DNA of 20,747 bases from IMG/VR virus record IMGVR_UViG_2579778622_000016, positions 1-20,747 of that record, one strand, 5' to 3'. A program made the translations under genes and the position numbers. The notes under the pieces were generated by a model. It saw only the letters and a program-made list of their open reading frames with translations, was not told the DNA's origin and did not search any database. Every line of letters starts with the position of its first letter. Positions within the stretch are counted from its first letter, which is position 1. This stretch comes from a virus. Its lineage: Duplodnaviria; Heunggongvirae; Uroviricota; Caudoviricetes. Of the stretch, positions 1,874 through 14,880 are shown piece by piece.

Positions 1874-2070
1874 TACTGGCTGCGACATTTTTGAATAAAA
1901 GCGTCGATATTTCGGCGCTCATAACGAACTACTTTTGCACTGAAACGAATTGGTGCCAGGATAGCCCGATGACGATGCTTAATATTCCACTCACATAGCG
2001 TTTTCTGTGTAATACCTAACTTTTGGCATACTTCATCCGGGGTGAGTAAATCGTCGGGTTTCTCGCTCAT
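1870..2070 (-). CDS. AlpA/Xis-family small HTH DNA-binding protein (putative excisionase or regulator)
   Basis: 66-aa ORF, SD GAGAGG 6 nt upstream. LLTPDEVCQKLGITQKTLCEW pattern typical of AlpA/excisionase HTH. Start overlaps the helicase stop (ATGA); stop shares a TTAA with the int stop. Confidence 0.55.
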   Translation of the reverse strand: MSEKPDDLLTPDEVCQKLGITQKTLCEWNIKHRHRAILAPIRFSAKVVRYERRNIDAFIQKCRSQY

Positions 2071-3467
2071 GCTATACCTCTCTTTTTCATGGCATCGAGC
2101 AGGATGTCCTGCACTGTTCGTTTTGAGTTGCGCCGCTCCATCACCATTTCATCCATAGTGTCGGCAGCAATAATGTGGTGAATAAATACCGGACGATTGT
2201 GTCCGGCCTGTATCTGCCTGGTGGGGCCGATACGTTCAATAATTTGCTGATATTGCTCCAGGTCCCACCAGTGTGAGAAAAATACCAGTATATTTCCGCC
2301 GTCCTGCATGTTCAGGCCGTGGCCCGCGCTGGCTGGGTGTGCAAAGAGAACAGGAATCTTTCCGGAATTCCAGTCGCGCAGTGTCTTTGGATCCTGGTCG
2401 AGGTGACGACCGCGAGGGAATGCTTTAAGCAAGCGTTCAAGATCGTGTTTCCAGTGATAAGCAACCAGCACAGGTGCGCCAGCTGCTTCGGTCAGTATGC
2501 TGTCCAGCGCCTGCAGTTTGGTGTCATGCAGTTCTGACCAACTTCCGGTGTCGTCTGTGTATACTGCGCCACTGGCGATTTGCAGACACTTCAGTGTCTT
2601 TGCCGCGGCGTTTGGTGCTTCGATGCCTTCGCCATTCAGCTCGAGGAACATTTCCTTTTCCATTTCACGATACTGCTGACGGGCCTTCGGCGGCATATCC
2701 ACGCGGATTACGTTATGGATGGGGTCTTTGATATCGAACCAGTCGGCCGCATCCAGCGAGAGGGTTACATCGGCTAACGCTCGCTGTATTTCACCCTGTG
2801 AGTGAGCAAAAGGCTCCAGTTTAGTCCAGCTCTGTCCCGGAAACTGTATCGAGTTGAACCAGCGTGAGGTAAACGCGCCATAAGTGCGCCCGAGACGTTG
2901 CCCTTGGTCCACAAACCACGATTGTCCCCACAAATCTACCAGGCCGTTCGGTGCTGGCGTACCGGTGAGATTTATCCAGCGCCGGACATACTTATGCGCC
3001 ACTTTGCCCAGCGCCGCCGCGCGCTTACCACCACCTCGCAGCCGGAAGGATTTTAGCCGGGTGCTTTCATCTGGAATGACAGTACCGAACGGCCATCGTT
3101 CTCCCAATTCCTCAACCAGCCAGACAAGGTTATCGTAGTTGATGGTGAACACGCTCGCGTTGCTGTTCGCCAGCGCTGTAGAGCGCGCTTTGGCATTACC
3201 AACAATCGGCTGCACCTCGATATTGCGCAAATGCCCCCACTTCACTGCTTCATCCGGCCATGTGCTGGCAGCCACGCGCAGCGGCGCGAGGACCAGTACG
3301 GGGCGTGTTTCTGCCCCTGCCATAAAAAGATCTTCCAGCGCAGTGAGCGTTGCCACGGTTTTACCCATTCCCATACCTGCCCAGATGTTGCAGCGCATAA
3401 TGTCGACTTGATGATTGATGATGAGATCTTGGTAGGGACGGGGGCTGAATAGTTTAGAAGGGGTCAT
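2067..3467 (-). CDS. SNF2-family (DEAD/DEAH-box) helicase
   Basis: 466-aa ORF with Walker A GMGKT and DExx-type IPDESTRL; C-terminal helicase domain. Typical partner of VRR-NUC and family-A polymerase in phage replication modules. Confidence 0.85.
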   Translation of the reverse strand: MTPSKLFSPRPYQDLIINHQVDIMRCNIWAGMGMGKTVATLTALEDLFMAGAETRPVLVLAPLRVAASTWPDEAVKWGHLRNIEVQPIVGNAKARSTALANSNASVFTINYDNLVWLVEELGERWPFGTVIPDESTRLKSFRLRGGGKRAAALGKVAHKYVRRWINLTGTPAPNGLVDLWGQSWFVDQGQRLGRTYGAFTSRWFNSIQFPGQSWTKLEPFAHSQGEIQRALADVTLSLDAADWFDIKDPIHNVIRVDMPPKARQQYREMEKEMFLELNGEGIEAPNAAAKTLKCLQIASGAVYTDDTGSWSELHDTKLQALDSILTEAAGAPVLVAYHWKHDLERLLKAFPRGRHLDQDPKTLRDWNSGKIPVLFAHPASAGHGLNMQDGGNILVFFSHWWDLEQYQQIIERIGPTRQIQAGHNRPVFIHHIIAADTMDEMVMERRNSKRTVQDILLDAMKKRGIA

Positions 3468-3751
3468 TAAGCCCCCTCTAGGTCAACATTGGGAAGCTTA
3501 TAGTCTGGTATGGTTTCATCCAATACCCTGGCGATAAAGTCATCTTTAGGGTAATAAATTACCGCTCCGAATTCTTCGCTTAAATAGTGACTTGAAGTAG
3601 CTGCGTTAGTATCGTTATCCCACGTTACAGGAACCAGACCTGTATGATCTTGTTTCCACGCAATAATAGGGTGGACCGTGTAAAGTGAACCATCATCGTT
3701 ATAAAGCACAACCCACCAACCGGGTTGAGCCGGCATATAATTATCCATCAC
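3467..3751 (-). CDS. Hypothetical phage protein (94 aa)
   Basis: ORF with GTG (3751) / ATG (3748) start behind SD GGAGGGG; stop overlaps the helicase start (TAATG). No recognisable motif. Confidence 0.5.
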   Translation of the reverse strand: MMDNYMPAQPGWWVVLYNDDGSLYTVHPIIAWKQDHTGLVPVTWDNDTNAATSSHYLSEEFGAVIYYPKDDFIARVLDETIPDYKLPNVDLEGA

Positions 3752-3775
3752 AATATCCCCTCCAGATTTTAGCTA
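3748..3775. repeat. Copy 1 of a 28-bp direct repeat (TCACAATATCCCCTCCAGATTTT-N-GCTA) carrying an SD and GTG start
   Basis: 27 of 28 positions identical to 5366-5393 (the first 23 bp are perfect); in both copies the repeat supplies the RBS and GTG of a minus-strand gene. Confidence 0.7.
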
Positions 3776-3806: not shown

Positions 3807-4556
3807 TCAGATTAGATCGGTGTAGTAGGTGAAGTTGCCAAACTGCGGATGTGTCCAGCGCTTGCGGTTACCTTTCGGTGGTGTCGATTCGTTTAACAGC
3901 TTTTGAGCTGCTTGTTCGATCTCCGGAAGGTTAACGAGCAATCCCCGAACGCCGGTGTCTGAACGTACTGGTATCCTGGCGAAGCCGATCAATTTCCGGC
4001 ATGTTGAATCAGATAAACCTGTTTTCCATGCTGCTTTGCTGACGGGGACATATTCACCTTCAACATTAGATAAATTCGCTGGTGCGGCTGGTTGAAAATA
4101 GCCAGTTGCATCAAGACAGGCTTTCATTGTTGCTTCTGCTACGACGCGAGCAAGCTGGACGATGCCGTCGTTGATCTGAATTTTGGGTGTGGAAGGATGG
4201 GTAACAAGCGGTTGTACTTTACCTGTTTCCAGCTCACGCCAGCGCTTAACTACTTTATACCGGTCGTGGGCGCTATAACCAGTTACAAGCGTTGTGGAAA
4301 GGTCCTGATCGAGTAGTATTTCATCAATGACTTCGCGACCATTATAGACCTTCCTTTTGACTAAAAAGTCTTTATTTTCATGATGGTACATTTCTGTACT
4401 ATGAAAACCTAACTGCTCAAGAAGTGCTTTAATATCGCGCACGACTATTTTATGTTCTTTGCCGGTAAGTTCTGCAATCTCGCGACTGCTCATCATCGGT
4501 TGCTTACCAGTGCCTGCTAGTGTTAAAGTTGTTTCGAACATTGAAGTATTCTCCAT
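3807..4556 (-). CDS. Rha-family phage regulatory protein (antirepressor-like)
   Basis: N-terminal MSSREIAELTGKEHKIVVRDIKALLEQLG matches the Rha (Phage_pRha) signature as I remember it. The first ATG (4556) lacks an SD; the ATG at 4541 (GGAG upstream) may be the true start. Confidence 0.7.
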   Translation of the reverse strand: MENTSMFETTLTLAGTGKQPMMSSREIAELTGKEHKIVVRDIKALLEQLGFHSTEMYHHENKDFLVKRKVYNGREVIDEILLDQDLSTTLVTGYSAHDRYKVVKRWRELETGKVQPLVTHPSTPKIQINDGIVQLARVVAEATMKACLDATGYFQPAAPANLSNVEGEYVPVSKAAWKTGLSDSTCRKLIGFARIPVRSDTGVRGLLVNLPEIEQAAQKLLNESTPPKGNRKRWTHPQFGNFTYYTDLI

Positions 4557-4601
4557 TTAATAAAAGATGCGCTGGTAGCTGCAACTATCAGCGCGTTTTA
4601 T

Positions 4602-4778
4602 TTATTCATCCCACGGCTTGTTTGCAGCTTCCCTTGCAGCCTGCTGCGCAAAATAAATCAATTCAAAAGCTAACTGCTCTCCTTTCTCCAGCGAACTGAG
4701 AAGCCTTGCTGTTTCCAGCATGTCCGCGATATACCCGAAAATATCTGCCTGATGTAACTGCGTGATCTGAATAGCCAT
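4602..4778 (-). CDS. Small hypothetical protein (58 aa), not in the supplied ORF track
   Basis: Translated by hand: MAIQITQLHQADIFGYIADMLETARLLSSLEKGEQLAFELIYFAQQAAREAANKPWDE. SD GAGG about 9 nt upstream; first gene leftward of the divergent promoter/operator region. Confidence 0.35.
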   Translation of the reverse strand: MAIQITQLHQADIFGYIADMLETARLLSSLEKGEQLAFELIYFAQQAAREAANKPWDE

Positions 4779-4798
4779 AGCGTTAACCTCGTTTAGTT

Positions 4799-4877
4799 CT
4801 CATTGTGAGGACTAGATTTATTAGTACTCACAATGAGGCTTGAAGTCAACATGTTTGTGAGGCATGTTGTTCTCACA
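4799..4877. promoter_or_regulatory. Divergent promoter region with two palindromic operators (TGTGAG / CTCACA half-sites)
   Basis: Perfect 11-bp inverted repeat CTCATTGTGAG (4799-4809) / CTCACAATGAG (4827-4837), and a second pair TGTGAG (4856-4861) / CTCACA (4872-4877), just upstream of the RHH gene start at 4895. Confidence 0.5.
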
Positions 4878-4894
4878 CTTTCAAGGGATCATAT

Positions 4895-5224
4895 ATGAGC
4901 AAAAGAGACGACCCGCAGTTGAGGGTACGCATACCAGAATTACTAAAAGAGGCTTTGGAGAAGAAAGCACGAGCTAATAAGAGAACACTGACCTCTGAGA
5001 TCGTTAGCAGGTTGGAATCTACTATTCTTCAGGACAAATTACTTCATACATCTAGGGGGTTTGAGGAAGCTGCTGATGAGATTCTCATACTCAGGGATCT
5101 TCTCGAGAAACTTAAGACAACGTACCATCGAGAGCATCAGGCCGAATGGGTTTATGAAAACAAATACGAGCTTATTGAGGCGATGGAAAAACTTAAGAAG
5201 TTGCTAAATCCTGAGAATGAATAG
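4895..5224 (+). CDS. Arc/Mnt-type ribbon-helix-helix repressor with C-terminal coiled-coil (Mnt-like)
   Basis: 109 aa; N-terminal RVRIPELLKEALEKKARANKRTLTSEIVSRLE is a classic Arc-like RHH pattern; C-terminal heptad-like region. SD AAGGGA upstream. Confidence 0.7.
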   Translation: MSKRDDPQLRVRIPELLKEALEKKARANKRTLTSEIVSRLESTILQDKLLHTSRGFEEAADEILILRDLLEKLKTTYHREHQAEWVYENKYELIEAMEKLKKLLNPENE

Positions 5225-5369
5225 TGGATTCATCCTCTAAACTTTTACGTAACCGCCGGGTGATTTCGGCGGTTAGTGTTCTGTCGTTTTCTCTGGAAAT
5301 TTTTTCCAGTGCGTCTTTCAAGTCTTGCGGGATGCGTACCCGCAATTGTGGGTCATCACGTTTACTCAC
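5193..5369 (-). CDS. Arc-like ribbon-helix-helix protein (58 aa), paralogue of the 4895..5224 product
   Basis: Hand translation from GTG: (M)SKRDDPQLRVRIPQDLKDALEKISRENDRTLTAEITRRLRKSLEDESTIHSQDLATS; first 14 residues identical to the plus-strand RHH. SD GGAGGGG; GTG overlaps the VRR-NUC stop (GTGA). Not in the ORF track (under 60 aa). Confidence 0.55.
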   Translation of the reverse strand: MSKRDDPQLRVRIPQDLKDALEKISRENDRTLTAEITRRLRKSLEDESTIHSQDLATS

Positions 5370-5393
5370 AATATCCCCTCCAGATTTTTGCTA
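5366..5393. repeat. Copy 2 of the 28-bp direct repeat (see 3748..3775)
   Basis: 27 of 28 positions identical to 3748-3775; lies at the VRR-NUC 3' end and supplies the SD/GTG of the Arc-like gene. Confidence 0.7.
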
Positions 5394-5635
5394 TCCAGCA
5401 CCACCACGGTAAAGCCCAGTTTTCGCAGACGTTCATGTTCGCGCAACTGGTCGGCGCGTGGTGCTTTGCCGGGTGCTTTGCATTCAACGAAAACAAGACG
5501 GCCGCCGGGTAGCAGAACAATGCGATCCGGTACCGAGCGGCGACCGGGAGATACGAACTTAAAGGCCACACCGCCAGCCTTTTTTACTTCAGCGACGAGG
5601 TGCTTTTCGATTAGGTTTTCACGTTCATAGGCCAT
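5366..5635 (-). CDS. VRR-NUC domain nuclease (PD-(D/E)xK fold)
   Basis: 89 aa; PDRIVLLPGGRLVFVECK matches the VRR-NUC D...ExK core. Confidence 0.8.
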   Translation of the reverse strand: MAYERENLIEKHLVAEVKKAGGVAFKFVSPGRRSVPDRIVLLPGGRLVFVECKAPGKAPRADQLREHERLRKLGFTVVVLDSKNLEGIL

Positions 5636-5829
5636 TAGCTTTCTCCTTTCTGCTTTTTGCGTTTCTTCATGCAGATAGCGCAGTTCTCAGGATGGTCATG
5701 CCATTCATCAATCCTGATACCTGTGAACATCCATTTTCCGCATAGTGATATGGCTTCCCCCGAATTAAAGAAATGTGCTTTTTTTGACAGAGCGGGGAAC
5801 CCCCAACCCTTATTATCGATATTAGACAT
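5635..5829 (-). CDS. Hypothetical Cys/His-containing small protein (64 aa)
   Basis: ORF coupled to the VRR-NUC start; CGKW...HDHPENCAIC suggests a small metal-binding element; basic C-terminal tail. Confidence 0.45.
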   Translation of the reverse strand: MSNIDNKGWGFPALSKKAHFFNSGEAISLCGKWMFTGIRIDEWHDHPENCAICMKKRKKQKGES

Positions 5830-5865
5830 CGTCCACCTCCTTACGCTTTTCGCGCATGTTCTGCA

Positions 5866-6000
5866 TCAGACAAAAATCAAACCGACGTTCGCTTTGGCCC
5901 AGACCTGCATCGCCCGGTCGTACCCGCCGGACTGTTCAAGGCGCAAAGCCTCCCGCACAGTCCGGTAGTAAAGTAGATTGTCCCGGTATTTAAATGACAT
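5866..6000 (-). CDS. Small hypothetical protein (44 aa), not in the ORF track
   Basis: Hand translation MSFKYRDNLLYYRTVREALRLEQSGGYDRAMQVWAKANVGLIFV; lies directly downstream of an intrinsic terminator, so its expression context is unclear. Confidence 0.3.
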   Translation of the reverse strand: MSFKYRDNLLYYRTVREALRLEQSGGYDRAMQVWAKANVGLIFV

Positions 6001-6015
6001 ATATTTCGATTCCTG

Positions 6016-6041
6016 TAAAAAGCCCCTGACTGAGCAGGGGC
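6016..6041 (-). terminator. Rho-independent terminator (minus strand) downstream of the Bro-N gene
   Basis: Stem GCCCCTG (6022-6028) / CAGGGGC (6035-6041) with a 6-nt loop; the A-run at 6016-6021 on the plus strand is a U-run on the minus-strand RNA. Confidence 0.6.
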
Positions 6042-6052
6042 GAATTGAAGGA

Positions 6053-6817
6053 TTAACGAGGTAAAGTGGGGGGAGTATATCTGCCGATGCGGTCTTCTAT
6101 GGTCGGCAGAATGCACATGCTGTCGCTGAAGCGGTCATGCAACTGGTAAACCAGTTTCGAATCCATTTTTTCGAGAGCAGGCATTAACTGCGCTCGCCAG
6201 ATTTCGTTGATGCGCCGGAAGTTGTGACAGACGGCGCGGAGATTGTTGATGAACATTTCCTTCTCTGCGTCATTGATTGCTGTCTGAGCTTTCTGAATGC
6301 GTTTCGTGCTGCCATTCCGGTAGAAGCGTTCCTGAGCAGCAACAGCCTCATCCACGGTTGGATAGCACCCTACGTAAACGCTCTTCTCTCCGTCCCATGC
6401 ATAAGCCCTGTACGGATTGTATTTGCTCCGGTGATGGTAAATCATCTTCGGCAGACATTCCCTGTGCGGCGCCAGTATCGTGGAGGACTGCGGAACAGCG
6501 GTTTCTTTCTCGATAAGGTCAAGCACCCAACGGCGGAATTCTTTTGCTACTGGCGTTGTTGCGAACATCGCTACCAGGTGGGCACCGCGGAGGGAGAAAA
6601 TGCGGCGCGAGGCCTGTAAATTCCCCAAGGTAACCATTTTGATTACCTCGGACATGCCGAGAGTGAACTCATCCGTGTTGCGGGTGTAAATGTTAGTTAC
6701 GCTGCGAGCATCAGAATATTCTAGCGCGGTAGCCAGGGTAGCCGCAGTAAACCACTGCTTGCCGTTGTGTTCGACCGTTTCGAGAATGTGGGATTTGAAG
6801 ATGAGTTGAGTACTCAT
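6053..6817 (-). CDS. Bro-N domain protein (phage antirepressor family)
   Basis: 254 aa; N-terminal FTAATLATALEY...NLQASRRIFSLRGAHLVAMFATTPVAKEFRRWVLD fits the Bro-N pattern. SD AAGGA upstream; terminator-like hairpins on both sides. Confidence 0.75.
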   Translation of the reverse strand: MSTQLIFKSHILETVEHNGKQWFTAATLATALEYSDARSVTNIYTRNTDEFTLGMSEVIKMVTLGNLQASRRIFSLRGAHLVAMFATTPVAKEFRRWVLDLIEKETAVPQSSTILAPHRECLPKMIYHHRSKYNPYRAYAWDGEKSVYVGCYPTVDEAVAAQERFYRNGSTKRIQKAQTAINDAEKEMFINNLRAVCHNFRRINEIWRAQLMPALEKMDSKLVYQLHDRFSDSMCILPTIEDRIGRYTPPTLPR

Positions 6818-6967
6818 AGTCTTATGTCCTTGCTGATTTGTTCAGATTGCCCTGTGTTCAGCAGGGCGGTCGGGTACTTGAACACCGCAGCAAGCCGGCC
6901 CGTATCCTTAGCCTTGCGGCTGTTTTTCGGTATACGCGCTACCCGACCATATCTGAAAAATGGACAT

Positions 6968-6997
6968 AAAAAAAATCCGCATGACTGACGGGTGCGG
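6968..6997 (-). terminator. Rho-independent terminator (minus strand) downstream of the DNA polymerase gene
   Basis: Stem CCGCA (6977-6981) / TGCGG (6993-6997) with an 11-nt loop; on the minus-strand RNA it is followed by U8 (plus-strand A-run 6968-6975). Confidence 0.55.
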
Positions 6998-7061
6998 TTT
7001 CCGCTTGCTGTGGTGTGTTCAGCACCATGAAGCGGAATATACCTATTGGTCATCGCGGATG

Positions 7062-9125
7062 TCAATCTTTCCGGTATCTGTAAGATTCGAATCCTCCGGC
7101 GTTTAGTGGAATGCTCGTGGCCCAGTCAGGAACGGTTGCCAGTAACTGGCTGAGATGTTCTGCTGAGTAATCGGGTGAGTCAGGGGCCTCACTTATAATT
7201 TCATCGTGTACCGTCAGCACAATGCTGTAACCGGCATCTTCGATAAGCGGCATGTTTCCGGCCAGAACGTCGCGGGCGGCCGCCTGGGTGACGTTCTCTA
7301 CCAGCTTTCCGCCGTAGGTTTTGAGTCGTTGCCATTTACGCGAATAAGAGTTAACACCCATATAGGTGATATCCCCTTTTTCGATAACCGGAGACGGGTA
7401 GCATACAGCGCGTCCAGATGGCAGCTGTATGCGCAGCCACGCGCCATCACGTTGAATTTTAAGATAGCCGCAATACAATGTTTTTTGCGGTGTGGCGATT
7501 GCTGTGCGGACAGTGCGCTCCAGCTCGTACCAGAAATCGCAGGTAGCCGGGTGCGCCCTGCGCCACAGGCGCTTGAGCGAGTCACATGCGATGAATACAC
7601 GCTCGGACAGGCCAAAGGTCGACTTACGTTTAACCGATTCGTCGTACCAGCTTTTCGCCTCGCGGATAACATCGCGGGGAATGTTTGGCAGTGCGGCGTT
7701 CGCCAGCTCGTCGAGATCGAGACCGTAAACCAGAGCAAAAGTGATGAAAGCCGATACACCACCTCCATAACCCAGACCGAGTTCCATGACTTTACCGATC
7801 TGACGCATGTGTTTATCAACATCATCTGGTGCAATATCGAAAGCTTTTGCATACGCCAGTTTATATAAGTCCGGACCCGTTCCGGCGTCGTACTCTCTGA
7901 ATGCATTCAGTTTCCATTCCTCTCCCGCCAGCCATGCCAGCATACGGCCTTCAATGTTTGACAAGTCACTTACCACCAGTTTTTTGCCTGTTGGCGCGAT
8001 AATGCAGCCACGTAACGCTGAACTGGTTAGTTCCATGATATTGTCAAACAGCAGGTCTGCACATCCGGCTTTCAGTGCTTCGATGCCTTCGTCTATTTGT
8101 TCCTGTTTTAGTGAAGGGCGGGGAAGGTTCTGGGGCTGGAATAGCCGTCCGGCCCAACGACCGGTACGTGACGCCCCGCAGAACTGTAGCGTACCGCGTA
8201 AGCGCCCGTCGTGGCTTACGCCTTTCATTAGTGCCTTGTATTTACTGGTGCTGGTAGTACTGGCCTGCAGGCGGATAGCCAGCAGTTCTTTCACGGCAGA
8301 TGGTAAATTGGGGTCGGCAATACGACGTTCCAGAGTACTGCGTTGCATGTGTGGTAGCTCCACACCGTAGGATTCAACAATGTGCTTAATCAACGCGTCT
8401 CGTTGTGTGGCTGCCTGCACTTCGCCATCAGTCATTTCCTGTGTACGCTTTGCCAGGCGCTTTTGCTCCTGGTCTACCGCTTCGATCGCAGCGCGCGCGA
8501 GTTGCATGTCCATGCAGACGCCCCGGTCGTTGATCTGCTGATCACGATGCCAGAGCGCCAGCTCTGTCCCCTGATAATTCCACTTCGGCAGACGTTTATA
8601 GACTTCGCGCATTGCCTCGATATCCAGTCCGGCGTAAGCAACAAAGCGCCGCCATTCTTCCGGGTGGGTTTTGCTGGTGGCACGGCGCAGTTTGCTATTT
8701 TTCGGACGTGGCTTACAGAACAGCTGGATCAGCGCCTTACCTTCTTTGTCCTTCGCTTTGTCTTGCGGGACGCCTAGTACTTCGCAGAGTTCCCCCAGAG
8801 ACCCCGGGAGACCGTGCGCCAGCGCCTGCACCATCGTGTCGCGCCAACGTTCGACTGGCGGTGCCAGTCGCGGCATTGCATAACGCAGAACGGTGCGGTC
8901 GAAGTGAGAGTTATGGAAATAAAGCAGGGTTTCAGGGTCTGCGATTGCTTCGTATAAGCCGTGTGGAATACCACCACCGGCAGTGATATCCCACACGTTT
9001 ACTGGCCCGTCGTTGATAGCCCATGCGAAAAGCATCACTTCAACGCCTTCGGCATACGCATGGGTACCGTTGTTGATCGGAATGTCACAATAGGTTTCCA
9101 GGTCGCCCCATAGTATATTGGACAT
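7062..9125 (-). CDS. Family-A DNA polymerase with 3'-5' exonuclease domain
   Basis: 687 aa; Exo I GDLETY, motif [13 protein letters not shown], motif [13 protein letters not shown], motif C VHDE. SD GAGGA 6 nt upstream. Confidence 0.9.
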
Positions 9126-9186: not shown

Positions 9187-9876
9187 ATGACTGTGGGTAA
9201 TAAGAGACAGCCTAATGGATTACCTGAATATTATTGTCACCGTGGTAACGACATAAAAGATGCGATAGTTCGGGATTTTATTATTCAGCCTGTTGCACAC
9301 CTGAAACTTATTACTGGACAAACTAAAACCAGTTATTCCGGTTATCCGTTAACCGATCAGTACTATTGTTTTTCATTTAAAAAACGCTCTGATGAAAATT
9401 GTACAGGGGCTTTTTTCTGTGGTAGAGATGTTGCAAATGATTTCATTCGGCGTATCGGTTGTACAGAGCTGCCGTTATTTAATCCTATGAAATCGGATAC
9501 CAGTGCAGCAATAGAACGTTCCGGTTCTGGCTCAGGTAGTTCCGGTATTACTGTCAAGCCAAATGCTGACAAAAAGCTATTTATAGACGCAGCTCGTCTG
9601 TTAATGACGCTGTGGGATTCAACAAGTAAGGGACAAACCCCACTGGCGTCGGTTCTTAATGAAGCAATTTCTGGTGGTATAGATAAACCTCCAGAAATTA
9701 GACATGTAGTGGCGGTTAATACAATGTTGGGTAACACAAAAAATACTTTAACTGGCCTGCTGGATAAAGCAAGAGCGAAGTATCCTGATGTGTTATTCAG
9801 AGATTTTGATTTCACGCCTCTTAACGAGATTGTAAAACGTTCAAAATCATATAATAAGCATCCCCCTTGTTATTGA
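9187..9876 (+). CDS. Hypothetical two-domain protein (229 aa), opposite-strand accessory gene in the replication operon
   Basis: Strong SD AAGGAGA 7 nt upstream; visibly AT-richer than the flanking genes; Cys/His-rich N-domain, SGSGSGSSG linker, C-domain. No family recognised. Confidence 0.6.
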   Translation: MTVGNKRQPNGLPEYYCHRGNDIKDAIVRDFIIQPVAHLKLITGQTKTSYSGYPLTDQYYCFSFKKRSDENCTGAFFCGRDVANDFIRRIGCTELPLFNPMKSDTSAAIERSGSGSGSSGITVKPNADKKLFIDAARLLMTLWDSTSKGQTPLASVLNEAISGGIDKPPEIRHVVAVNTMLGNTKNTLTGLLDKARAKYPDVLFRDFDFTPLNEIVKRSKSYNKHPPCY

Positions 9877-10511
9877 GTATCAGACACTGTATTGGTAGGA
9901 AGGCCTATCATTTCATTTAATGTCTCTCGATGTACTGCTGGTGCTAAAGGGACTGGCGGTGCGTCTGTTGGAAGCAGTTCTTTAGCTTCGGGCCATACAT
10001 CCAGTAATCGTTTTACTGTCCGAACTTTATTTAGAGCCGCGCTGACGTTCTGTATGATTTCGGTTTCATCACTTTTAATTTGTGTGTAGAGAGCATCAAA
10101 GCTATAAAACTCCGTTACCAGAGGATCTTCGCCAAGTAGAGTAAATTCTGCAGGTGCTATTTTATTAATATGCTCGGGGGCTCCTGATTCATAACCTCTG
10201 TAGTTGCCATTGAAATAAATGTTTGCTCTGGCTCCAGCCAGATTGAGATATATGCAGCAATCTTTTCGAATTAAAGAACTATTGGTTTTTAATGAATCAG
10301 GGATTTTTGTTACCATGGATTCAATCTTTTTTAGATTTTTTAATATTTCAGCTTCTTTCTCTACGCCCCCGATAGCTGCAAGCCGAACACGTTCGGCCCA
10401 TTCAACACGAGCAGCTCGTAGTGCTGATTTACGTTTGGGGATTCCCGCTTTCTCAAGTGCGTTATTGATGATTTGAGTTTTAAGGTGATTAGTTAATACG
10501 GGCTGTGACAT
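9870..10511 (-). CDS. Hypothetical protein (213 aa)
   Basis: ORF with SD GAGGG upstream of the ATG at 10511 (the track's longer form to 10541 would run through a GC hairpin). 3' end overlaps the 9187..9876 gene by 7 bp. Family not recognised. Confidence 0.55.
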   Translation of the reverse strand: MSQPVLTNHLKTQIINNALEKAGIPKRKSALRAARVEWAERVRLAAIGGVEKEAEILKNLKKIESMVTKIPDSLKTNSSLIRKDCCIYLNLAGARANIYFNGNYRGYESGAPEHINKIAPAEFTLLGEDPLVTEFYSFDALYTQIKSDETEIIQNVSAALNKVRTVKRLLDVWPEAKELLPTDAPPVPLAPAVHRETLNEMIGLPTNTVSDTQ

Positions 10512-10529
10512 TATTCTTTCCCTCATGAG

Positions 10530-10554
10530 ATCCCCCAGCATGTAGCTGGGGGAT
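10530..10554. other. Perfect 10-bp GC-rich hairpin (ATCCCCCAGC-ATGTA-GCTGGGGGAT) between two co-directional minus-strand genes
   Basis: Perfect inverted repeat; on the plus strand it is followed by GAATATTTTT (terminator-like for rightward transcripts), on the minus strand it lies in the 5' leader of the 213-aa gene. Confidence 0.4.
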
Positions 10555-14140: not shown

Positions 14141-14764
14141 TTATCTTTTGCGGCGGTAAATACGATGTTCAATCATGACCCCTACGATCTGTAAGGGGAC
14201 ATCTGCACTTCGTAGCACGGGATAGTCGGGATTCAGGGGGACCAGTTCAAAATCATCAACGCCGATACCCAACGGGCGGTATTTTTTGAAAGTGGCCTCA
14301 TACCCGTTGTTCTTTGCAACGACGAATTCGCCAGGCATGGGGCATAAATCCGGGTCAATTATTACAATATCGCCTTCCTTAAACTCCGGTTGCATACTGT
14401 CACCATCTATCCGCAGGGCGAAGCAGGACTCAGGTACGTCGGAATCCGCGAGAACGTATTCCATATTTCCATCCATGTCCGTAGCGTCTTTTGCTTCCGT
14501 TAGCGCACCGGCCTGTACGTAACTGAGGATCGGGATGCGGCGGGTACTTATTTCCGCCAGGGGCATTATATTCCTGCCATTTAAAAGCCAGTCGGGACTG
14601 CATTTCAGTGCCTTTGAAAGCTCTATGATGTTGCGGGGCTTCCGGGTCTTTCCGCTTTCAATAGTCTCAATGGATTGCTGGCTGACCCCCGCGATTGCTG
14701 CAACTTCTGTTTGTGTCATCCCGAGTTCTGTACGGCGTGCTTTAAAGCGTTCTGCAAGTGACAT
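14141..14764 (-). CDS. CI-like prophage repressor (N-terminal HTH, C-terminal S24 LexA-like peptidase)
   Basis: HTH LGMTQTEVAAIAGVSQQSIETIESG; S24 motifs GDSM (Ser) and VVAKNNGYEATFKKY (Lys). SD AGGGGG upstream of the ATG at 14764; the track's extension to 14830 lacks an RBS. Confidence 0.85.
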   Translation of the reverse strand: MSLAERFKARRTELGMTQTEVAAIAGVSQQSIETIESGKTRKPRNIIELSKALKCSPDWLLNGRNIMPLAEISTRRIPILSYVQAGALTEAKDATDMDGNMEYVLADSDVPESCFALRIDGDSMQPEFKEGDIVIIDPDLCPMPGEFVVAKNNGYEATFKKYRPLGIGVDDFELVPLNPDYPVLRSADVPLQIVGVMIEHRIYRRKR

Positions 14765-14880
14765 GGTGTACCCCCTGATTCCTGATTTTTTGCTCTCCCT
14801 TATTAATACAATTTTTGTTGTAGTTGACAAACATCATTTATTGTCGCTAAATACCACATAAATTGTAGGAGACAATAATC
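14765..14880. promoter_or_regulatory. Divergent cI / cro promoter-operator region (OR-like)
   Basis: TTGACA at 14824-14829; inverted repeat TTATTGTC (14838-14845) / GACAATAA (14871-14878); AAATACCACAT (14850-14860); ATTGT-AGGAG-ACAAT palindrome whose centre is the cro SD. Confidence 0.5.

Follow-up and report, generated by a model that had tools for sequence, protein, structure and literature searches.

The stretch of viral DNA that we analyzed (20,747 nt; hereafter the window) is an E. coli prophage of 20.7 kb, and our subject is a compact gene cassette within its early operon. The cassette follows a VRR-NUC gene (5366-5635, minus strand). It consists of a short Arc-like ribbon-helix-helix (RHH) gene (58 aa, GTG start; 5193-5369, minus strand), a long Mnt-like RHH gene that is convergent with it (109 aa; 4895-5224, plus strand), an intergenic region with palindromic sites, a gene for a 58-aa two-helix protein (4602-4778, minus strand), a hairpin with a U-tract (4564-4607), and a Rha-family gene (3807-4541, minus strand), which we will term the cargo gene. 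The early operon is on the minus strand, in the order polA ... VRR-NUC, cassette, a 94-aa open reading frame (ORF), SNF2 (2067-3467), and an excisionase (Xis).

With the 58-aa gene as the anchor and the cargo protein as a second route, we collected 16 distinct related loci, which come from Escherichia, Salmonella, Serratia, Erwinia, Mixta, and Sodalis. The 16 loci have a common order: short RHH gene, convergent long RHH gene, intergenic region, 58-aa gene, hairpin, and cargo gene. The convergence and the tight packing of the RHH genes are kept across the loci, with short RHH proteins of 45-58 aa, long RHH proteins of 104-146 aa, and intergenic regions of about 115-135 bp. The short RHH ORF is intact in 15 of the 16 loci (the exception is L030, from Sodalis), and the 58-aa gene, which had been overlooked in an initial annotation made from the sequence alone, is present in every locus examined. 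The core of the cassette (4557-5400) occurs in 13 complete E. coli genomes at 97-98% identity; there, PGAP labels its genes as "Arc family" (twice), "hypothetical," and "Rha family."

In strain STEC383, VRR-NUC directly overlaps SNF2, which represents an empty site, and in IAI1 the slot of the cassette is filled by an unrelated gene. The location of the cassette also varies: at some loci it follows VRR-NUC, and in Salmonella and certain viral contigs it comes after SNF2. The empty site and the varying position indicate that the unit is a mobile cassette that was inserted into an operon. A 28-nt junction sequence (5366-5393), which comprises the 3' end of VRR-NUC, a GGAGG Shine-Dalgarno sequence, and the GTG start, recurs 1618 bp away (3748-3775, 96% identity), upstream of the 94-aa ORF, and the same junction joins VRR-NUC straight to SNF2 in STEC383. 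This repeat has the look of a scar left by recombination or of a portable linker for swapping genes after VRR-NUC. We rejected the idea that the two copies are the ends of the cassette because the left copy belongs to the junction of a separate insertion, that of the 94-aa ORF (3467-3751). This ORF lies between the cassette and SNF2, is absent from the related loci L001 and L004, and has no family match.

The two ribbon-helix-helix genes

The long and short RHH proteins have a common N-terminal start, MSKRDDPQLRVRIP, and both pass the Pfam cut-off for Arc (PF03869; 37.0 bits for the long protein and 38.1 bits for the short protein, with a cut-off of 20.4). The pair reported in the initial annotation (109 aa on the plus strand and 58 aa on the minus strand with a GTG start, sharing an N-terminus) is thus real. 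The long protein is about 34% identical to Mnt of P22-like phages over residues 4-79 and matches PDB entry 1mnt (E 0.002), and we take it to be a distant homologue of Mnt. The short protein aligns to the Arc structures 1arq and 1baz (E ~1e-4). (It also matches chain G of PDB 9pio with E 3e-4; this is a 79-aa "Arc family DNA-binding protein" in a recent multi-chain entry.) The strand PQLRVRIP aligns on PQFNLRWP of Arc and PHFNFRMP of Mnt. In Arc, the outward-facing residues of the β-strand are Q9, N11, and R13. An AlphaFold2 (AF2) model of the long protein has helices at residues 15-27 and 32-50, so that the aligned strand and these helices fit the RHH pattern of an N-terminal β-strand with alternating outward polar residues and two helices. 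The layout may be of the Mnt type, in which a C-terminal helical domain serves oligomerization: the likeness to Mnt reaches residue 79, and the C-terminal tail is predicted to form two more helices (53-88 and 90-104).

Residues 1-13 of the long protein are invariant in 16 homologues, with overall identity down to 43%. Within the window, codons 2-14 of the long and short genes encode identical amino acids, with a proportion of synonymous differences (pS) of 0.91, so that synonymous sites are saturated. That the residues are identical despite this divergence implies that the common N-terminus is held by selection and is not due to recent gene conversion.

The upstream early operon ends with the short RHH gene, whose GTG start shares bases with the stop codon of VRR-NUC (GTGA) and has the GGAGG Shine-Dalgarno sequence 7 nt upstream. 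The 4-bp overlap between its start and the stop of the preceding gene is found in all loci examined. Variants of the gene are under purifying selection (the ratio of the nonsynonymous proportion to pS, pN/pS, is 0.06-0.23), which argues for translation. A decaying duplicate or a chance ORF that is not translated could also have a GTG start and a 3' end that partly overlaps the long gene. We consider this very unlikely because such an ORF would not be expected to have a strong Shine-Dalgarno sequence and a start that is coupled to the VRR-NUC stop, to be kept in nearly all of the loci under this degree of constraint, or to score above the Arc threshold.

The 3' ends of the two genes overlap by 32 bp in the window (5193-5224), as the initial annotation stated, but this is not a conserved feature, as relatives range from a 17-bp gap to a 32-bp overlap. 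So, interference specifically via overlapping 3' ends, which had been suggested as something that the arrangement allows, is not part of the design. We also considered a terminator-like hairpin for the long RHH transcript (5250-5275, plus strand), which lies inside the short RHH coding sequence. We do not view it as a conserved terminator because it is strong only in the class A loci (see below) of E. coli and Salmonella and is weak or absent elsewhere. Finally, a type II toxin-antitoxin system with an RHH antitoxin was rejected: the long RHH gene is alone in its transcription unit, nothing but the antisense of the long gene follows the short RHH gene, and no module protein matched a toxin family.

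Operator sites and specificity classes

Between the long RHH gene and the 58-aa gene lie two predicted promoters that are back to back. P_left (4849..4821, minus strand) has a −35 element of TTGACT (4849..4844), a 17-nt spacer, and a −10 element of TACTAA (4826..4821), and it would transcribe the 58-aa and cargo genes. P_right (4840-4868, plus strand) has a −35 element of TTGAAG, a 17-nt spacer, and a −10 element of CATGTT, and it would drive the long RHH gene. The two −35 hexamers overlap by 2 bp (TTGAAGTCAA in the window). The homologue of P_right in L004 (TTGATG-17-CATAAT) was picked up by a promoter scan.

The initial annotation described palindromes built on TGTGAG/CTCACA half-sites upstream of the long RHH gene. 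These are real and not random. The hexamer TGTGAG occurs 14 times in the window, and 4 of these occurrences are inside 74 bp (4804-4877); CTCANNNTGAG occurs only twice in the window, both times in this cluster (0.23 expected); and an inverted repeat with 16-nt arms (4799-4814 and 4822-4837) is 94% complementary. The sites are better read as 11-bp dimer sites, CTCA-N3-TGAG, together with two half-sites. Site 1 (CTCATTGTGAG, 4799-4809) is an 11-bp palindrome just downstream of the predicted start of P_left, and an equivalent is present in all class A loci. Site 2 (CTCACAATGAG, 4827-4837) is in the spacer of P_left and abuts its −10 element. Site 3 is formed by the half-sites TGTGAG (4856-4861) and CTCACA (4872-4877), which are on either side of the −10 element of P_right. 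At the position homologous to site 3, L029 has a full CTCACCGTGAG site, and the class B loci have CACCAC-C-GTGGTG abutting CATAAT.

The loci fall into two classes by the sequence of the β-strand that contacts DNA. Class A comprises the window, L001, L010, L026, and L028-L032. Here, both the long and the short RHH proteins have the strand PQLRVRIP (contact positions Q, R, and R) and the intergenic sites are 11-bp palindromes of the form CTCA(C)-N-(G)TGAG. Class B comprises L003, L004, L017/L019, L027, and L045-L048. In this class, the strand is QMK(I/V)R(L/I)P in the long protein and QFKLR(V/I/L)P in the short protein (contact positions Q, K, and R in both), and the sites are (A)CCAC-N-GTGG(T). 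Thus, within a class the long and short proteins have the same DNA-contacting residues, and the operators shift with the class. In class B, the N-termini of the two proteins differ outside of the contact residues, and their cores are about 45% identical. No locus mixes the two classes. This holds despite repeated swapping of the long gene's C-terminal tails, which are located between the two RHH domains and are unrelated among class B members. In both classes, the scaffold TTGA(A/T/C)(G/T)GTCAA is kept, and the sites are in the spacer of P_left, in the +1 region of P_left, and abutting the −10 element of P_right. It appears that the two RHH proteins recognize a common set of sites, unlike Arc and Mnt.

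Three other observations concern the sites. First, a 4-nt indel at the center of the palindrome, between sites 1 and 2, separates E. coli modules that are otherwise 98% identical (17 nt at 4810-4826 of the window and 13 nt at 7045-7057 of L001) and alters the helical phasing of these sites. Second, a single operator half-site, ATTGTGAG, at 5365-5370 (minus strand) lies over the GTG with which the short RHH gene starts; it could be due to chance (from GTG-AGT) or could be a point of autoregulation. Third, we considered control by LexA and rejected it, as there is no CTGT-N8-ACAG box near the module or near the Bro-N gene that is discussed below.

The cargo gene, the antisense hairpin, and neighboring genes

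The cargo gene probably starts with the ATG at 4541, which has a GGAG Shine-Dalgarno sequence before it; a longer version of the ORF (3807-4556) starts at 4556. The protein passes the Pfam cut-off for Phage_pRha (PF09669; 41 bits over residues 22-110, with a cut-off of 29.9), so a Rha gene does lie on the minus strand near the RHH pair, as had been noticed initially. It has a Rha-family N-domain and a conserved C-domain that is not ANT, and it belongs to PHROG families that are annotated as anti-repressor. In relatives, the cargo slot contains Rha+ANT, KilA-N+ANT, KilA-N+X, or Bro-N proteins. Judging from its domains, the cargo protein belongs to a domain-shuffled "antirepressor" superfamily, and antirepressor activity is plausible.

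Alternatively, the cassette could be an immI-like shell (by analogy to the immI region of phage P22) whose cargo does not act as an antirepressor against the CI repressor of this prophage. Instead, the cargo might be a DNA-binding regulator or might have an accessory role, such as interference with other phages, with the 58-aa protein as its partner. Both of its predicted domains are of DNA-binding types (a Rha winged helix, and a C-domain that is nearest to winged helix-turn-helix (HTH) domains of the RacA/Xis type), and "anti-repressor" is a PHROG or PGAP label only. Also, homologues in Yersinia, Serratia, Enterobacter, and Pantoea are in early-left operons and would be expressed only once CI is gone, and the adjoining variable slot contains genes with TIR domains in relatives. 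However, proteins with the ANT/KilAC domain (PF03374) fill the same slot in other genera, no PADLOC defense family was matched, and the fold matches are statistically weak (E > 0.4). We regard this alternative as a serious possibility, but would not call it probable. Two narrower proposals were rejected. The C-domain of the cargo is not likely to be the excisionase of the prophage, as there is a separate AlpA-like Xis ORF (1870-2070) and the matches to Xis folds are weak, and a defense system is not indicated because no module protein had a PADLOC match.

The 58-aa protein is encoded by the first gene of the regulated operon, between the operators and the Rha gene. It has no match in Pfam, PHROG, PADLOC, or NCBIfam, and its relatives number only 9 representatives in a set of 1.84 billion proteins, with conservation extending down to 41% identity. 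A tblastn search of phage records with this protein and a first scan of contigs with it also gave no match.

The hairpin that separates the 58-aa gene from the cargo gene (4564-4599, with the U-tract extending to 4607) is an intrinsic terminator on the plus strand, which is antisense to the operon. It is kept in all loci. Its minus strand, too, resembles a terminator in E. coli and Salmonella. The minimum free energy in the window is −21.5 kcal/mol on the plus strand versus −16.2 kcal/mol on the minus strand, and the mean folding energies are −21.9 versus −16.6 kcal/mol. Across 14 distinct sequences, 97.4% of the cells of the alignment are paired on the plus strand, with compensatory changes in 6 of 11 pairs. 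The 17 cells that are not Watson-Crick pairs comprise 13 G-U pairs and 4 mismatches on the plus strand, versus 3 G-U pairs and 14 mismatches on the minus strand. The plus-strand T-run after the stem is invariant (T37-T40), while the T-tract on the sense strand is found only in E. coli and Salmonella and is absent in Serratia, Erwinia, Mixta, and Sodalis. The asymmetry between the strands and the invariant T-run suggest that the functional terminator belongs to an RNA that is antisense to the cargo.

We predict a sar-like antisense RNA unit at 4500-4606 (plus strand), with a −35 element of TTGCTT (4500-4505) and an extended −10 element of TG-T-TAAAGT (4521-4529). The RNA would start near 4536 and end near 4606 (about 70 nt), and it would be complementary to the start codon of the cargo gene (4539-4541) and to its Shine-Dalgarno sequence (4551-4554), thus covering the ribosome-binding site. 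In 12 of 15 distinct loci, the motif TGnTAnnnT precedes the U-tract by 59-66 nt, regardless of the type of cargo N-domain (Rha, KilA-N, or Bro-N). A longer antisense RNA, from a promoter-like site within the Rha gene (4357-4384), was dropped in favor of the site at 4521-4529, as it has a counterpart in L004 and none in L026.

The hairpin might instead be merely a bidirectional terminator or insulator, without a small RNA, that attenuates transcripts from P_left before they reach the cargo gene or that stops antisense read-through from the integrase side. In support of this, it resembles a terminator on both strands in E. coli and Salmonella, the proposed antisense −35 element is weak (3 of 6 matches in the window), and an Rfam scan at the antisense element found no family match of any kind (E up to 1). 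But in the other four genera just the antisense strand has the T-tract, the pairing asymmetry favors that strand (G-U versus C-A, 13:3), the promoter motif is at a fixed distance in most loci, and there is no plus-strand gene upstream for 2.7 kb. We therefore think that an insulator alone is doubtful, and we retain the antisense RNA in the proposal below.

The Bro-N gene was described in the initial annotation as flanking the RHH unit together with Rha. Both genes exist (Bro-N, PF02498, has 38.9 bits over residues 13-100, with a cut-off of 25.6), but Bro-N is not an adjacent part of the module. It is a separate unit (7065..6022, minus strand), with its own near-consensus promoter (7065..7036; TTGACA-18-TATATT), an sRNA-Xcc1 leader (6860-6948), the coding sequence (6053-6817), and a terminator (6041..6022), and there are no RHH-type sites upstream of it. 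The sRNA-Xcc1 element is a full-length Rfam match within the 244-bp leader (71.4 bits, with a gathering score of 53). In the APSE phages, the sRNA-Xcc1 family is upstream of a gene with an ORF6N domain (PMC7313666), which suggests that sRNA-Xcc1 is a leader element that recurs before genes of the general Bro-N/ORF6N kind. In relatives, the Bro-N slot contains TIR genes, or else Ant or Bro-N genes behind sRNA-Xcc1, isrK, and C4 RNAs; the P1-type C4 RNA (RF01695) is present in L001, L004, and L031. The window has no match to C4 or isrK, and sRNA-Xcc1 alone is upstream of its Bro-N gene. The presence of these RNAs before Ant or Bro-N genes in sister prophages implies that some of them carry both P1-style and P22-style antirepressor control units. 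(The combinations of RNAs near polA are at 5447-5763 in L004, 12741-13054 in L001, 349-534 in L031, 4653-4736 in L003, and 1018-1108 in L026.)

As for the rest of the prophage, the integrase is at 470-1873, and polA (7062-9125, minus strand) belongs to the early operon, with ANR and a 64-aa ORF between it and VRR-NUC. The AlpA/Xis-like ORF has 66 aa and is on the minus strand; it fell under the 80-aa limit of the ORF listing. As its start overlaps the SNF2 stop, the excisionase is downstream of the cassette in the same operon. An HTH gene in L002 and L003 is comparable. Elsewhere, a protein with an Nmad5 domain (9870-10541, minus strand; 184 bits) adjoins a 229-aa ORF on the opposite strand (9187-9876) that has no family match. 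This segment (9187-10541) contains different genes in relatives and may be a slot for nucleotide modification or other accessory genes.

A proposed circuit and its relation to known systems

We propose that the region represents an "ant moron" of the P22 immI type, a mobile unit lodged in the early operon for replication and excision of an E. coli prophage under CI control. We think that this is probably correct, with considerable room for doubt. The proposal is based on sequences and their comparison: the same reading β-strand in both RHH proteins, three cognate sites on back-to-back promoters, an operon of the 58-aa and cargo genes, and the antisense terminator. In a lysogen, the long RHH protein would be made from its own autoregulated promoter, P_right, and would sit on sites 1 and 2. 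This would keep P_left off, so that the 58-aa protein, the cargo, and the downstream genes are silent. By covering the ribosome-binding site of the cargo gene, the antisense RNA would prevent leaky transcripts from being translated, in the way that sar acts on ant. Once the early operon becomes active, because of infection or CI cleavage, the short RHH protein would be translated by coupling to the preceding gene. It would bind the same sites and shut both cassette promoters, which would limit cargo synthesis as Arc does, and it would end head-on transcription from P_right, so that the early transcript could read through to SNF2 and Xis.

Several observations weigh against this proposal. First, the covariation of reading heads and operators involves just two classes and could partly reflect linkage, and the contact residues of the classes differ by a single R/K. 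Second, a scan for consensus promoters called neither P_left nor P_right in the window, and their −10 elements are weak. Third, the spacing of sites 1 and 2 varies (24, 28, or about 35 bp), so no fixed tetramer geometry can be derived from it. Fourth, the motif TGnTAnnnT is missing in three loci, and the antisense promoter is partly in codons of the cargo (an xTLTL peptide), where coding constraint also bears on its conservation. Finally, in the AF2 model, the fold of the cargo's C-domain weakly resembles winged-HTH/excisionase proteins (RacA and Pukovnik Xis, E > 0.4); it looks like a DNA-binding winged HTH and not like a known repressor-binding domain. More distant homologues of the cargo are also found in early-left operons with no RHH gene nearby.

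Another possibility is that the short RHH protein is an antagonist, which forms heterodimers with the long protein or competes for its sites and, lacking the oligomerization tail, undoes cooperative repression. In that case, the cargo would be turned on by early transcription (a feed-forward arrangement). This would make sense of the identical β-strand and similar RHH core of the two proteins and of the helical tail that only the long form has. Also, with its start overlapping the preceding stop, the short gene would be expressed only with the early operon, and convergent early transcription would itself lower the synthesis of the long protein. However, P22 Arc is the same size as the short RHH protein, has no tail, and is a good repressor (the short protein matches 1arq and 1par), and the divergence of the long and short cores in class B makes an obligate heterodimer less likely. 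Overall, an antagonist seems quite unlikely, and we prefer repression by the short protein. A related and tentative idea, which we view as somewhat unlikely, is that the short RHH gene is a portable "operon adaptor" with which the cassette can be fitted into any essential operon: being always translationally fused to the preceding gene (VRR-NUC or SNF2), it would report the activity of the operon and reprogram the cassette's two promoters. If so, the short protein would use the shared reading head either to clear head-on transcription or to poison the long repressor, and together with the 58-aa factor and the sar-like RNA this would be a general way to insert an oppositely transcribed moron without breaking an operon.

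By annotating the parts singly, PGAP overlooks the operators, the predicted small antisense RNA, and the unity of the cassette. The natural variants (two classes of reading heads and operators, many tails of the long RHH protein, and four cargo architectures) make RHH-DNA recognition and the insertion of morons into operons directly testable. Also, Shiga-toxin-producing E. coli and livestock isolates account for many of the carriers, in which the control of prophage induction is of practical interest. The window also contains a CI-type repressor with HTH and S24 domains (14141-14830), so the RHH module would be a second control layer, in agreement with the initial annotation.

Our literature searches found no description of the module or of the prophage family. 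The parts of the module are from known families, and its logic is that of immI; the literature that we searched does not contain the placement of the arc-like gene outside the ant operon, a reading head common to both RHH proteins, the 58-aa gene, an insertion within the early operon, or the conserved antisense terminator.

Dimers of the Arc/MetJ superfamily bind short palindromes, as with the met-boxes of MetJ, CopG, and the heptads of omega. Similarly, the 11-bp palindromes of the module (nnCAC-N-GTGnn) are repeated two to three times, which is compatible with one RHH dimer per site and with cooperative binding, but with variable site spacing. Control at the RNA level before an antirepressor-family gene is found in immI of P1/P7 (c4 RNA, icd, ant) and in isrK-anrP of Gifsy-1. 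Unlike those systems, the RHH module uses protein repressors with a predicted cis-antisense RNA, and the P1-type elements belong to the Bro-N slot of the sister prophages, which is a distinct unit.

The closest parallel is with P22, whose ant moron and immI region have been described (PMC2629481; PMC8022706). As in P22 immI, a tailed Mnt-like RHH gene is divergent from an operon that ends with a gene of an Ant-type family, there is a small Arc-like RHH protein, and operators overlap divergent (here, predicted) promoters that themselves overlap. The sar RNA of P22 (68/69 nt) pairs with the ant mRNA and blocks its translation (PMC12197685), and the predicted RNA of about 70 nt would likewise lie between the first small gene and the cargo. 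Also, the ant moron of P22 was inserted into an essential operon that needs read-through (PMC2629481); the cassette is likewise within an operon that must be read through, and the role that we propose for the short RHH protein in this parallels a proposal made for the P22 moron (PMC2629481). So, the parallel with immI that was drawn initially holds for the divergent Mnt-like gene, the Arc-like gene, and the operators on promoters, but it fails for the position of the arc-like gene and for separate operators. In P22, arc is the first gene of the ant operon and is autogenous, while here the arc-like gene closes the upstream early operon and is convergent with the mnt-like gene. P22 has separate operators, Oarc and Omnt, while each of our loci has one type of site and the two RHH proteins have identical contact residues. 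The first gene of the regulated operon, at the position of arc in P22, encodes the novel 58-aa protein, which is not an RHH protein. The cargo is not of the P22 Ant family but has Rha, KilA-N, or Bro-N plus X or ANT, and the insertion is in an early replication operon instead of a late operon. Thus, the module would represent a second, independently evolved wiring of the Mnt/Arc/sar/Ant circuit.

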